64,000 nt of DNA from an uncultured Alphaproteobacteria bacterium (GTDB lineage Bacteria > Pseudomonadota > Alphaproteobacteria > HIMB59 > GCA-002718135): the NCBI GenBank assembly GCA_902588745.1, contig CACIQI010000002.1, forward strand, positions 137,519 through 201,518, in the 5' to 3' direction. This document shows, piece after piece, positions 48,172 through 54,523 of this stretch (within the stretch, counting starts at the first letter, position 1; the number at the start of each line of letters is the position of its first letter). The position numbers and the translations under genes are program-made. The notes below the pieces were generated by a model. That model was not told the DNA's origin, ran no database searches, and saw only the letters and a list, made by a program, of their open reading frames with translations.

Positions 48172-48246
48172 TGGCGGTCTCGTAGGGACTCGAACCCCAA
48201 ATCCATGTTCCGAAGACATGTGTGATATCCATTTCACCACGAGACC
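48172..48246 (-). tRNA. tRNA-Arg (anticodon UCG), CCA-encoded
   Basis: Hand-folded cloverleaf on the minus strand: acceptor GGTCTCG/CGAGACC, D-stem GTGA/TCAC, anticodon stem CATGT/ACATG with loop CTTCGGA, and T-arm TGGGG-TTCGAGT-CCCTA. The discriminator is G and the 3' end is CCA. Confidence 0.9.
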
Positions 48247-50464: not shown

Positions 50465-51655
50465 ATGAAAAAATTTTTTTTAAATGATCCTAATCTCTTA
50501 GTATACGGATTTGCCATGGTCTTCTTTGCAAGTTTTGGACAGACTTTTTACATTGCATTATTTAACGATGATATTCGAAATCTATATAAAATTACAGATG
50601 GTGAGTTTGGATTAGTTTATGCCATAGCAACGCTTATAAGTTCATTTTTATTTATAAACTTTGCTAAATTAATTGATAAAATTGATCTAAGATTATACTC
50701 CATAAGTATTATTCTTGGTTTAGCTTTCGCTTGCATTGGTTTTTATTTTATTTTCGATAATATTTTTCATCTTTTTTTTATTTTATTTTTATTACGTTTT
50801 TTTGGACAGGGAGCTATGACACATGCCGGTTCAACCTCAATGGCGAGATATTTTTTAACTGATAGAGGTAAAGCAATATCAATTGCAACACTTGGAGGAA
50901 TGTTGGGTATAATGTTTTTACCAAAGATTGTCGTTAATTTGGACTCATACTTTAGTTTTAAAACTCTTTGGTTTTTAACAACTTTGACTCTTTTGATCTT
51001 AATTCCAATAATATACTTTATTCTTCATAATCAAAAAAGCAGGGATGCTTCACTTCAAAAAAATATCGACAATGAGGAAACACATAAAAGTTGGACCATT
51101 ACAGAAATTTTAAAAGACCGAGTTTTTTTTATCTACTTTCCATTAGCTGCATGCTTTCCATTTATTGGTACAGGGTTAATGTTTCATCAGATTTATATTT
51201 TTGATGTTAAAGGGTGGACAATGGAAATGCTAGGGAACGGTTATATATATTTTGGATTATTCTCTATTTTAGGATTATTGATAGGAGGACCCTTAATTGA
51301 TAAGATAAATACAAAGAAAGCAATACCTTTTGTACTATTACCTTTGTTAGTATGTATCACCATTCTTTTTTTCTTTAATAATCATTGGTCATTCGTGCTT
51401 TACATGTCTTTATTTGGATTTAACTTAGGTTTATCAGCACCGTTTATGGGATCACTTTGGGCGGAAATATATGGAGTGAAAAGTATTGGAACTGCCAAAG
51501 CTTTATTGCACGCAGTTGGAGTTTTTGCAAGCGCCTTATCTCCTGTTGTTTTTGGTTATATTATTGATTGGGGTTATGGAATAACAGTTATATTTTTAAT
51601 CAGTTCCACAATGATTGTTGTATCATCAATTTTACCTATAATTTATAAAACATGA
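50465..51655 (+). CDS. MFS transporter
   Basis: 396 aa with about 12 TM segments. Confidence 0.8.
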   Translation: MKKFFLNDPNLLVYGFAMVFFASFGQTFYIALFNDDIRNLYKITDGEFGLVYAIATLISSFLFINFAKLIDKIDLRLYSISIILGLAFACIGFYFIFDNIFHLFFILFLLRFFGQGAMTHAGSTSMARYFLTDRGKAISIATLGGMLGIMFLPKIVVNLDSYFSFKTLWFLTTLTLLILIPIIYFILHNQKSRDASLQKNIDNEETHKSWTITEILKDRVFFIYFPLAACFPFIGTGLMFHQIYIFDVKGWTMEMLGNGYIYFGLFSILGLLIGGPLIDKINTKKAIPFVLLPLLVCITILFFFNNHWSFVLYMSLFGFNLGLSAPFMGSLWAEIYGVKSIGTAKALLHAVGVFASALSPVVFGYIIDWGYGITVIFLISSTMIVVSSILPIIYKT

Positions 51656-51792
51656 ATAAACAAATAATGGAGAGTCTTAATTTTCTTATCAAGGAATATA
51701 AAAGATTAATAAAGAAAAAAGAAGATAAAAATATCAGCAGTGCTGAACTGGAAACTTTAAAACAACTAGAACAGTACTTAGGTAAAAAATAA
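51652..51792 (+). CDS. Candidate 46-aa helical/charged small protein (below the ORF-track cutoff), coupled at both ends
   Basis: Hand-translated as MNKQIMESLNFLIKEYKRLIKKKEDKNISSAELETLKQLEQYLGKK. Its ATG overlaps the MFS stop (ATGA) and its TAA overlaps the zapE ATG (TAATG), so it fills the gap exactly. Confidence 0.4.
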   Translation: MNKQIMESLNFLIKEYKRLIKKKEDKNISSAELETLKQLEQYLGKK

Positions 51793-52826
51793 TGTTTAAT
51801 GTAATTGATCAATACAATAGTTTTGTTGAAAATAATTTTATTAAAAAAAATAGAGATCAAATTGAATTCTTAAAACAAGCAGATAATGTATGGTCATCTT
51901 TTAGTAAAACAAAGTTATTTTTTAAGGATAAAATTTTTGAAGGAATTTATCTTTATGGTCAAGTTGGAACAGGAAAAACATTTTTATTAAATTTATTTTA
52001 TCAAAATACCAAGATTGGAAAAAAAATTCATTTTAATAACTTAATGAATGAAATACATGAACAAGTTAAAAAATCAGAAAATAAAGAACTTTCTATTGAA
52101 AACTATGTAAAGAATTTAAGTCGAGATTACAAAATAATATTTATTGATGAATTACATATTTTTAATATTGTTGACGCATTAATAATAAAAAAAATATTTA
52201 ATTATTTTTCTAAATATAAAATATTTATATTATTGTCGTCAAATTTTCATCCAGATAATTTATATAAAGATGGTTTACAGAGAAATGATTTTTTACCATT
52301 TATTGATTTAATTAAAAAAAATTTTTTTCTCTATGATATTAGTATTAAAACAGATTTTCGCCGACAAACATTAAATCAATCAAAGACATATTTCACACCT
52401 ATAACAACTGAAACGTCAAATGAATTTGAAAAATTATTTAATCGCTTTGTTGATCCTTCCCATTTAACAACTGTAAAAATAAAATCTAAAAGTCGTGAAC
52501 TAGAGTTTGATAAATGCACATCAAATCTAATGATGATAGATTTTGAAAATCTTTGTGAAGTAAATTTTGGTAATGAAGATTACAAAAATATTGCAGACAA
52601 ATTTAGGTTGGTATTTTTAAAAAATGTTCCTGAATTTGATAATCAGAAAAAAGATTCGTGCAGAAGATTTATTGGATTAATTGATATGTTATATGAAAAT
52701 AATTGTTCTATTGTAATTTTAGCATCAAAACCTATAAATTCATTAAATAATATAAATACTCTAGCTGAAGAATTTAAAAGAACCGCTAGTAGATTATATG
52801 AAATGACCATAGTAAAACCAGATTGA
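51792..52826 (+). CDS. zapE: AFG1-family ATPase / cell division protein ZapE
   Basis: 344 aa with Walker A GQVGTGKTFLLN, Walker B IIFIDELHI and the AFG1 N-terminal Y....V......D..Q pattern. Confidence 0.88.
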   Translation: MFNVIDQYNSFVENNFIKKNRDQIEFLKQADNVWSSFSKTKLFFKDKIFEGIYLYGQVGTGKTFLLNLFYQNTKIGKKIHFNNLMNEIHEQVKKSENKELSIENYVKNLSRDYKIIFIDELHIFNIVDALIIKKIFNYFSKYKIFILLSSNFHPDNLYKDGLQRNDFLPFIDLIKKNFFLYDISIKTDFRRQTLNQSKTYFTPITTETSNEFEKLFNRFVDPSHLTTVKIKSKSRELEFDKCTSNLMMIDFENLCEVNFGNEDYKNIADKFRLVFLKNVPEFDNQKKDSCRRFIGLIDMLYENNCSIVILASKPINSLNNINTLAEEFKRTASRLYEMTIVKPD

Positions 52827-53812
52827 TGAAATACATAATCAGATTTTTAGTCAGTACAGTAGTTTTATTAGTAGTAGTTTATTTTACTGCAGGTTTTTAT
52901 GTTGCTTATCAAATTTTAAAAATAGATCCAACTTGTGGATTACACGAAGGATCCCTTCCTAATGCATGGAGTACAACAGTTGATTCACATGAATACTCAA
53001 TTCTTGCACGACAAAAAGTAAGAGAAAATTTTAACTTTAAAGATTATTATTTAGATGAATGGCAAGATGTATACTTTCAATCTCGTGATTCTGACATTAA
53101 GATTAATGGATGGCTGTTTAATTATTTTCCAAATAGACCAATTATAATTGTAACACATGGTATAAGCCCAAATGGTAAATGTAAGTCTGAAGCCAATCTT
53201 ATTGCAAGTTTTTTAGTTAATAAAAAATTTAATGTTCTGACGATAGATTTAAGAAACTACGGCCAAAGTGATACTGTAAGTAGTTATGATGATTTAGGCT
53301 TAAAGTCATATAATGATATTCTTGGTGCATTTGATTTTTTAAAAAAAATTGGTTTCAAGTCTAATAGCATTGGATTACATGGAATATCTCTTGGCGCAAG
53401 CACCTCTATTTTTGCAGCACATGCAGAACCGGAAATACGTGCAGTGTGGGCAGATAGTTCACTTGCTGAATTTAATATGATCTTAAAAGATGAAATAGCA
53501 AGATATGGTCTTACTATAGAATTTGGGCCAGTAGTAAGTTTAGCTGGAAGAATCTTAACTGGAACTGATCCAAGAGAATTATCTCCAGCTAAAAAATTAT
53601 CAAATAAACAATACTATTTTTTTACTCATGGCGATTCTGATACAAGAATCTTAACAAGACACTTTAACTATTTTAAAGATTATACAAATCAAAATAAAAT
53701 TAATGCTGAGTTTTGGTTAGTTGAAAACTCTTATCATGTAGATGCTATGTTTAAATATCCAGAAGTATATTCTAAAAAGATGGAAGATTTTTTTAATAAA
53801 AATTTAAAGTAG
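52823..53812 (+). CDS. Membrane-anchored alpha/beta hydrolase
   Basis: 329 aa with an N-terminal TM segment, the HGISLGAS nucleophile elbow (GxSxG), and later D and H candidates (HGDSDT, SYHVD). Confidence 0.75.
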   Translation: MMKYIIRFLVSTVVLLVVVYFTAGFYVAYQILKIDPTCGLHEGSLPNAWSTTVDSHEYSILARQKVRENFNFKDYYLDEWQDVYFQSRDSDIKINGWLFNYFPNRPIIIVTHGISPNGKCKSEANLIASFLVNKKFNVLTIDLRNYGQSDTVSSYDDLGLKSYNDILGAFDFLKKIGFKSNSIGLHGISLGASTSIFAAHAEPEIRAVWADSSLAEFNMILKDEIARYGLTIEFGPVVSLAGRILTGTDPRELSPAKKLSNKQYYFFTHGDSDTRILTRHFNYFKDYTNQNKINAEFWLVENSYHVDAMFKYPEVYSKKMEDFFNKNLK

Positions 53813-53948
53813 GCCGGACTCTAAAACTAGTTTGTACCTTGGCAGACACCTCTCTAGAATAAGAAACTCAAATAATTATCAAACGGCGGGTAAGATAATT
53901 AAAAATTCTTGGCGTTCCTCCGAAGCTAAGAAACGAGTATTATCCGGC
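53813..53948 (+). ncRNA. Candidate structured RNA / sRNA or sdh leader element (no known family recognised)
   Basis: This is a G+C-enriched island in an otherwise AT-rich 330-nt spacer. A terminal clamp pairs GCCGGA (53813-18) with TCCGGC (53943-48). One 8-bp hairpin spans 53873-53901 with a G-rich loop. A second 8-bp hairpin spans 53906-53932 with the loop GUUCCUCCGAA. A G-U pair favours the + strand. Confidence 0.3.
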
Positions 53949-54142
53949 TTATTAAGAGTAATATCTATCTATTTAAAATTCAAGATTTTTAGTTAAATCT
54001 GGTATTAAATTTGGTCGATTTTCATAAAATTTGCCACTTTTTATCAACATTTTACAAACTTCCATGATAGTAAGAAAAAATAACTAAACCATTAATATTT
54101 TGAAATTTGAAGAAAAATACTTACTTATGAAACATAAGAAAA

Positions 54143-54523
54143 ATGAAAAAAATGACTGATAATAGACCATTATCACCTCACCTATCTATTCACAAAAGAG
54201 TACTTACAGCAGTATTTTCAATTTTTCATAGGATATCAGGAATAGGATTAAGTGTGGGCGCAATATTAATTTCAATTTGGTTTTTATTAATTAGTTTTGG
54301 TCCTGAATTTTATATTTATTTTGAAATTCTTTCTAAAAGTATTTTGTTTAAACTTGTTCTAATGATTTGGACTGTAGGTATTTTTTACCATTTATTTAAT
54401 GGATGTAGAAAATTATATTGGTCATTCGGTATTGGAATGGAATTAGCTCAAGTATATAAATCTGGTTATGCTGTTATATGTTTAACTCTAATTTCTAGTT
54501 TAGTTGTCTGGTATTTTGCATGA
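54143..54523 (+). CDS. sdhC: Succinate dehydrogenase cytochrome b556 subunit
   Basis: 126 aa with the RPLSPHLSIHK motif and 3 TM segments. Confidence 0.9.
   Translation: MKKMTDNRPLSPHLSIHKRVLTAVFSIFHRISGIGLSVGAILISIWFLLISFGPEFYIYFEILSKSILFKLVLMIWTVGIFYHLFNGCRKLYWSFGIGMELAQVYKSGYAVICLTLISSLVVWYFA

Follow-up and report, generated by a model that had tools for sequence, protein, structure and literature searches.

A conserved, folded, non-coding RNA gene of SAR11 bacteria oriented divergently from the succinate dehydrogenase operon

SAR11 bacteria are the dominant cells of the surface ocean and carry streamlined genomes with very short spacers. In enterobacteria, sdhCDAB is controlled by RyhB, Spot 42 and RybB, small independently transcribed RNAs with a U-rich 3' end that are encoded away from sdhC and act through open single-stranded seed regions. 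The CcsR/cuckoo RNAs of alphaproteobacteria occur in several tandem copies, typically beside a DUF1127 gene, and are defined by CCUCCUCCC anti-SD loops on repeated hairpins. 6S RNA, highly conserved and of housekeeping grade, is a rod made of a closing stem, a large central bubble and a terminal stem, in which the 5' and 3' ends pair. MicF/ompC, OxyS/oxyR and GcvB/gcvA represent another arrangement: back-to-back promoters share one short control region, position is kept to one neighbour only, and the functional link to the divergent neighbour has been demonstrated. Transcription factors are few in SAR11, and its regulation is considered to operate in large part after transcription (PMC2704228, PMC2864753); glcB is under the control of a glycine riboswitch (PMC5069720). 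Surveys of SAR11 have described the SAR11_0636 motif (Meyer 2009, PMC2704228) and the sRNA-1 and HRC motifs (Stav 2019, PMC6429828). Like the RNA described here, these motifs are confined to SAR11 and marine metagenomes, form G+C-enriched islands in AT-rich spacers, count hundreds of representatives and include multi-stem junctions that are predicted to be stand-alone RNAs.

We analysed a 64-kb stretch of DNA (the window) in which positions 53813-53948 are a conserved, folded, non-coding RNA gene of SAR11, read on the minus strand. The gene lies in one of the longest spacers of the window, a 330-nt stretch flanked by two plus-strand genes, one for an alpha/beta-hydrolase (52823-53812) and the other sdhC (starting at 54143 or 54152). 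The 136-nt element opens the spacer 1 nt past the stop codon of the hydrolase gene, as in most loci, and has a G+C content of 36-37% against 19-25% in the remaining spacer. It had been noticed in an initial annotation as a G+C-enriched structured element, and the base composition bears out the enrichment. The individual features drawn there were also placed correctly: a terminal clamp GCCGGA/UCCGGC, hairpins at 53873-53901 and 53906-53932, and a repeated CUUGGC...UAAGAAAC module. Folded by itself, the window sequence is modestly more stable than its shuffled versions on both strands (plus, z = -2.9; minus, z = -2.4), so neither structure nor strand is decidable from this sequence alone. Comparison with homologous loci identifies an intergenic, conserved element with a covariation-supported structure, as expected of a stand-alone small RNA gene, and a stand-alone small RNA is what it probably is. 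We consider it likely that the element is a single-copy gene in its own right, whose product is a structured small RNA of some 136-145 nt encoded on the minus strand in SAR11 (Pelagibacterales) genomes. Its 5' end is placed at 53948 and the last base of its closing helix at 53813.

Scanning species-representative genomes with the hydrolase protein yielded 50 loci, nearly all of them from single-cell genomes labelled uncultured Alphaproteobacteria or Pelagibacteraceae, i.e. SAR11. The element is found in all 50, directly after the hydrolase stop codon, with an identity of 83-100%. Per 20-nt bin, conservation in these loci is 0.93-0.99 in the element, about 0.9 at the end of the hydrolase gene and 0.78-0.88 in the other spacer, and the element also outranks the start of sdhC. 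Among loci retrieved with SdhC, each one that extends far enough upstream contains the element. A scan of metagenomes with two invariant blocks added at least 120 loci that are far more diverse, hydrolase identity descending to 55% and SdhC identity to 35% among the matches listed. The element is likewise present in a deep clade that was retrieved without its use, includes a MarineAlpha5 MAG and has SdhC about 35% identical to that of the window. Nucleotide identity of the RNA is 55-93% across lineages, including some with SdhC proteins only about 35% identical, which makes it likely that the RNA is important.

Each locus contains a single full-length match, always on the same strand, to a covariance model (R1) derived from the minus-strand alignment; the score is 177.8 bits in the window and 49-176 bits in 92 other loci. 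The model also matches loci retrieved independently via SdhC. The metagenome search pattern required blocks of two hairpins, P2a and P3 (described below), so that their invariance in loci L066-L185 is partly built in, and independent support for the invariance of the P2a apex and P3 comes only from the protein-fetched loci L001-L065 and L198-L209. Both blocks are equally invariant in L001-L065 and in the deep SdhC clade. An outgroup-type sdhC that abuts asd without a spacer gave no match to the element. A phage origin was considered and rejected: twelve pattern matches in viral contigs are attributable to chance, and the covariance model recovers none of them. Assembly breaks near the element had suggested a multi-copy repeat, which is ruled out by the single copy per locus and in the window. 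Four contigs from independent metagenome assemblies (L053, L055, L056 and L060) start at the same base, corresponding to window position 53965 or thereabouts, at a distance of some 199 nt from sdhC, on its upstream side, and of 15-20 nt from the RNA 5' end. Metagenome assemblies seem to break at the hyper-conserved element as they do at rRNA and tRNA genes. In one further metagenome locus (L092, oriented 1-1150), a G+C-rich segment (43%) lies directly upstream of a SAR11-like element and sdhC; this contig is probably a chimeric assembly.

Covariation across about 190 homologous loci supports the three helices drawn by the initial annotation, in which the clamp and the two hairpins correspond to P1, P2b and P2a of the consensus. 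A MAFFT-only alignment of 87 diverse sequences left the variable stems too misaligned for RNAalifold, and a covariance-model alignment (A4) was used instead. Homologous spacers keep the helices while their sequences change: on the minus strand 95.4% of cells are paired, and 23 of the 42 pairs have substitutions in both partners, with 307 compensatory cells. On each of five measures the observed values lie beyond those of all 500 shuffles, and shifting the partners by 1-3 columns reduces pairing to 34-44%.

The overall fold consists of a 7-bp helix, P1, which closes both ends and contains a two-hairpin domain (P2, P2a and P2b) and a third hairpin, P3; all coordinates that follow refer to the minus strand. 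The 5' strand of P1 (GCCGGAU, 53942-53948) pairs with GUCCGGC at 53813-53819 in 99% of cells. All seven P1 pairs are compensatory, with C-G replaced by U-A in 19 sequences for example, and in most lineages the 3' strand is followed by a U-rich tract. P2 (helix 2), formed by CUCG at 53934-53937 and UGAG at 53867-53870, encloses the two-hairpin domain; it is paired in 92% of cells, and all five of its pairs change on both sides. P2a (53906-53932) has a GGAG loop and an invariant apex, GCUUCGGAGGAACGC, at 53912-53926. Its outer stem varies solely from U-A to U-G (in 28, 15, 7 and 13 sequences), a change compatible with the minus strand alone. P2b (53873-53901) joins an invariant loop-closing CCCGCCG (53884-53890) to a covarying stem with nine compensatory pairs; each position shows three to five kinds of pair (C-G 51, A-U 19 and U-A 8 at one of them). 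CCCGCCG was never part of a pattern retrieving true homologues and is found in 135 of 136 unique sequences. P3 (53827-53857, helices 6-7) comprises an outer CUAG/CUAG stem, an internal loop and a hairpin tip, GUGUCU-GCCA-AGGUAC (53834-53849), which in the covariance-model alignment is invariant and includes two fixed tandem G.U pairs. The outer extension of P3 covaries in other lineages, where the pairs at offset 9-10 are C-G 52/U-A 36 and U-A 57/C-G 33.

A mutual-information scan for additional long-range or pseudoknot covariation found none beyond the annotated helices. The loops of P2a and P2b are complementary at five of six positions (CGGAGG with CCGCCG), and a loop-loop contact may hold them together; both loops are invariant. 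The three lowest-scoring homologues (L079, L133 and L179, at 49-73 bits) lack GCCGGAU as the 5' strand of P1 and keep its 3' strand, AUCCGGC, together with the U-run. This lineage may build P1 in another way or have its 5' end at another place.

The wobble pairs assign the RNA to the minus strand. The helices of the covariance-model alignment, with 93 loci (91 distinct homologues), hold 455 G.U pairs on the minus strand against 15 A.C. Since an A.C on the minus strand is what reads as G.U on the plus strand, the proportion of 455 to 15 identifies the minus strand as the one transcribed, and the RNA therefore points away from the succinate dehydrogenase operon. The proportion is still 273 to 15 without the two fixed G.U pairs. 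Read on the plus strand, the alignment is paired in 83.6% of cells instead of 95.4%. RNAalifold, given the same 26 sequences in either orientation, forms 42 pairs at -32.3 kcal/mol in the minus sense and 32 pairs at -19.6 kcal/mol in the plus sense. A gap-free, strand-blind count anchored on the invariant blocks gives about 216 G.U against 31 A.C in well-paired positions, and 78 against 0 in the P2a outer stem. Among the 33 unique variants compared first, almost every apparent mismatch in the two hairpins of the initial annotation is A.C on the plus strand, equivalent to G.U on the minus strand.

The initial annotation had favoured the plus strand on account of a G-U pair at 53911/53927; this pair is not conserved and appears on the minus strand as a fixed 1x1 mismatch (A.C or U.C). 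Both the wobble count and the consensus folding energies reverse that assignment, so the small RNA candidate it proposed survives as a conserved, structured, non-coding RNA, probably stand-alone, and loses its plus-strand orientation. Several further proposals fall with the plus-strand reading. The C/U-rich loops taken for anti-SD sequences, "CCUCC" and "CACCUCUCU", read GGAGG and AGAGAGGUG on the transcribed strand. The likeness to cuckoo/CcsR RNAs relied on the same plus-strand loops, in place of which the minus strand has GGAG, CCGCC and GCCA. The duplicated module is real in the lineage of the window, and its first UAAGAAAC copy is not conserved elsewhere; the alternative pairings that the duplication was thought to permit form in 54-60% of cells, compared with 92% for the outer stem of P2a.

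Upstream of the RNA, a -35-like hexamer TTGAAT (53978-53983, minus strand) forms the most conserved block within 215 nt and belongs to the predicted promoter of the small RNA. Counted from the first P1 base, it occupies -35 in 66 of 147 unique upstream sequences and -36 in another 44, 110 in total. It is followed after 17 nt by a weak -10-like hexamer, TACTCT (53955-53960, minus strand), 6 nt before 53948, for which we infer a promoter role. The corresponding consensus, TAnnnT, is weakly conserved, with T at -13 in 95%, A at -11 in 81% and T at -7 in 54%. Together the two hexamers would make up a sigma-70-type promoter belonging to the RNA itself (TTGAAT, 17 nt, TAnnnT), from which transcription would begin at 53948, the first base of P1. 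At the opposite end, P1 is succeeded by a U-rich tail (CUACUUUAAAUUUUUAUU, 53795-53812, minus strand) that overlaps the hydrolase stop codon on the opposite strand; in 100 of 169 loci at least six of the first eight nucleotides after P1 are T. The 3' end might arise by termination at this tract, or by trimming to it, termination itself being uncertain. A terminator scan returned no site on either strand at the element, because P1 is a long-range helix and provides no local hairpin. The plus strand has no U-run after the element, its consensus there being UUAUUAAAAA. Further upstream, at 54040-54052 and about 99 nt from the RNA start, TTTATCAACATTT (TTGATAAA in the minus sense) forms another conserved block. 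It occurs in a subset of the unique sequences (59/147), overlaps a minus-strand promoter-like match at 54047-54018, and could be a second promoter or a regulator-binding site.

The position and orientation of the element relative to sdhC are constant in every locus containing both. The RNA is divergent from sdhC, and its 5' end lies 198-233 nt (median 207) from the sdhC start codon. Loci retrieved with SdhC share the syntenic order MFS transporter, 46-aa ORF, AFG1 ATPase, hydrolase, element and sdhCDAB. The neighbour on the other side is usually the hydrolase gene; it is an AFG1 ATPase gene in L095, L159 and L174, a uracil-DNA glycosylase gene in L184 and L185, a mannose-6-phosphate isomerase-like gene in L206-L208, and other genes elsewhere. 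The element and the sdhC start are separated by about 150 nt of poorly conserved AT-rich spacer. Within this spacer, about 55 nt before the sdhC start codon, lies a separate conserved box, TTTTGAAATT (TTGAAA, window 54100-54105). The sdhC gene would accordingly have a proximal promoter of its own, and its mRNA most likely does not include the element. Given this box and the promoter-like block of the small RNA, the two genes appear to be transcribed back to back from one control region of about 200 nt. The longest sdhC ORF of the window starts at 54143 (MKKMTDNRPLSPH). Homologues begin with M-(T/I/N)-(D/E/N)-N-R-P-L-S-P-H, which places the true sdhC start probably at the ATG at 54152.

The RNA matches no known family, as the initial annotation had surmised. 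The 4227 models of Rfam 15, which include 6S, SRP, tmRNA, alphaproteobacterial small RNAs, riboswitches and ribozymes, were searched for scores at or near the gathering threshold. At gathering thresholds, the whole window gave no match to the element; the sole Rfam/ARAGORN match in the 64 kb is a tRNA-Arg gene (anticodon TCG, 48172-48246, minus strand). Relaxing the threshold to E<=10 around the element produced chance matches to eukaryotic snoRNAs and snRNAs at 11-17 bits, and twelve divergent homologues yielded one chance miRNA match and no family. Full-text literature searches with the invariant sequences and keywords found no description of the RNA, and the SAR11 survey tables for HTCC1062 (PMC2704228) and HIMB5 (PMC6429828) list no motif beside sdhC. 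The survey motifs differ from our RNA in their flanking genes; they are set apart by their descriptions only, so that an unlisted or low-ranked survey region could be the same RNA. We have filed it as a new small RNA family of SAR11. A 71-aa ORF without a Pfam match is called across the RNA in three loci (L206, positions 2133-2348; L207; L208), and in the window a mechanical 54-aa ORF (53832-53996, plus strand) occupies the same place; the exact 54-aa sequence is absent from the protein collection searched. Such spurious ORF calls may explain why intergenic-region surveys have not reported the RNA.

The resemblance to better-characterised RNAs is confined to general properties. RyhB, Spot 42 and RybB are of comparable size and share a U-rich 3' end with the SAR11 RNA, and have no similarity to it in sequence or structure, Rfam being negative on both strands; in contrast to their open seed regions, the SAR11 RNA has closed ends and invariant stems, and its pairing with the sdhC start region is unsupported. 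The CcsR/cuckoo RNAs are similarly alphaproteobacterial and possess repeated hairpins with conserved loops. Their defining anti-SD loops are absent from the transcribed strand of the SAR11 RNA, which moreover is single-copy, is flanked by sdhC and by a hydrolase, AFG1 ATPase or uracil-DNA glycosylase gene, and has no Rfam match. With 6S RNA it shares strong conservation and paired ends, whereas its covariation-supported fold is branched (P1, P2 with two hairpins, and P3) rather than rod-like, and the 6S models of Rfam do not match it. Two rod-like refoldings of the 6S type were rejected: CUUGGC with GCUAAG involves merely invariant columns and clashes with the comparatively supported P2a and P3, and UAAGAA with UUCUUG forms in just 54-60% of cells. 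The arrangement of the putative promoters, in turn, recalls MicF/ompC, OxyS/oxyR and GcvB/gcvA, with the difference that the functional link of the SAR11 RNA to its divergent neighbour is suggested by synteny.

Two explanations would assign the element to the plus strand and to a neighbouring gene, and both had been offered by the initial annotation. As a cis-acting leader or riboswitch of the sdhCDAB-mdh-sucCDAB cluster, it would account for its unvarying place upstream of sdhC, at near-constant distance and in fixed orientation, and for a compact, aptamer-like multi-helix fold closed by P1; riboswitches in the central carbon metabolism of SAR11 are also known, the glycine riboswitch on glcB being an example (PMC5069720). 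A leader would need to be on the strand of sdhC, and the RNA is on the opposite one: transferred to the plus strand, its G.U pairs turn into A.C mismatches, 83.6% rather than 95.4% of cells are paired, and the consensus folding energy goes from -32.3 to -19.6 kcal/mol. The weakly conserved spacer of about 150 nt and the conserved TTGAAA box further separate the element from the sdhC start, and its beginning 1 nt past the hydrolase stop leaves no room for a plus-strand promoter, so we regard a leader as very unlikely. That same proximity to the stop codon, seen in the window and in most loci, is what recommends a 3'UTR element or terminator of the hydrolase gene. This reading is hardly credible, and we count it as refuted by the persistence of the element in loci without the hydrolase (L095, L159, L174, L184, L185 and others); the wobble pairs indicate the opposite strand, the plus-strand U-run expected after a terminator is absent, and the terminator scan is empty on both strands. 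The constant divergent position of the RNA upstream of sdhC, whatever its other neighbour, argues against both. Another candidate is a metabolite sensor on the minus strand. Ligand-stabilised P1 and the U-tract could decide between termination and antisense read-through, or a ligand could control an RNA acting in trans; P1 does close a junction with highly conserved internal nucleotides, and the U-tract follows it directly, as in an aptamer whose P1 serves as terminator stem. Antisense read-through would enter a different gene from one lineage to the next, leaving no conserved cis target, and the context suggests no ligand beyond the neighbouring TCA-cycle genes; we deem such a sensor improbable.

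The mechanism we prefer, tentatively, is that of an RNA acting in trans through its three-dimensional shape. Its invariant hairpin tips would be presented to a protein partner, so that the RNA would sequester the protein or serve as a scaffold; for an RNA of this kind, binding of a ligand is less likely than binding of a protein. The proposal draws on the ends closed by P1, on the multi-helix junction, and on stems that are invariant in sequence (the P2a apex and P3) beside others that covary freely (P1, P2 and P2b). It draws also on the 55-93% nucleotide identity that extends to lineages with SdhC about 35% identical, and on the searches next door, which found no complementary target. A close second to this shape-driven mode, itself somewhat doubtful, is a classical Hfq-type small RNA that base-pairs in trans; it would employ the C-rich loop of P2b (CCCGCCG) or the U-rich linkers, perhaps against mRNAs of the TCA cycle, respiration or iron-dependent proteins, in a role like that of RyhB, Spot 42 and RybB on sdhCDAB. 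Such an RNA would be expected to have the promoter-like element, the U-rich 3' tail, the single-stranded U-rich linkers, the invariant 7-nt loop on a covarying stem and the constant position beside sdhC that are observed here. Base pairing alone provides no explanation for P2a and P3 stems as invariant as their loops, and both termini are locked in P1. Nor does the 64-kb window show enrichment for complements of the P2b loop (19 sites against 12.6 expected). The J2/3 linker (UUUCUUAU) can pair with AUAAGAAA immediately before the sdhC start codon, and this candidate was rejected: the 8-mer is perfect in the window and is lost in a close relative, the linker and the sdhC start region show no co-variation, and cognate combinations are no better than non-cognate ones (-5.6 against -6.1 kcal/mol). 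RNAduplex comparisons of the whole RNA with all translation start regions of the window produced mostly meaningless long-loop duplexes and were set aside.

The fixed place of the RNA beside the sdhCDAB-mdh-sucCDAB cluster suggests, by synteny, a link to the TCA cycle or respiration, and constitutes a concrete, testable lead on how respiration is tuned in SAR11. The association with sdhC could instead stem from the general conservation of synteny in SAR11 and not from function. A more speculative picture, which we hold to be possible but rather unlikely, is that of a hitherto unrecognised core RNA across SAR11 acting by shape, as a protein-sequestering or scaffold RNA or as a trans-acting metabolite sensor, and co-controlled with sdhCDAB-mdh-sucCDAB from the shared region of about 200 nt. 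If true, central carbon and energy metabolism in the ocean's most abundant bacterium, which has very few protein regulators, would be under a global regulator of a new class. On the practical side, the extreme conservation of the element seems to break metagenome assemblies at this site, and ORF calls may mask the RNA. A 46-aa ORF without a Pfam match (51652-51792, plus strand) lies in the window between the genes of the MFS transporter and the AFG1 ATPase. It is called at the same place in every syntenic locus examined and may encode a real small protein.
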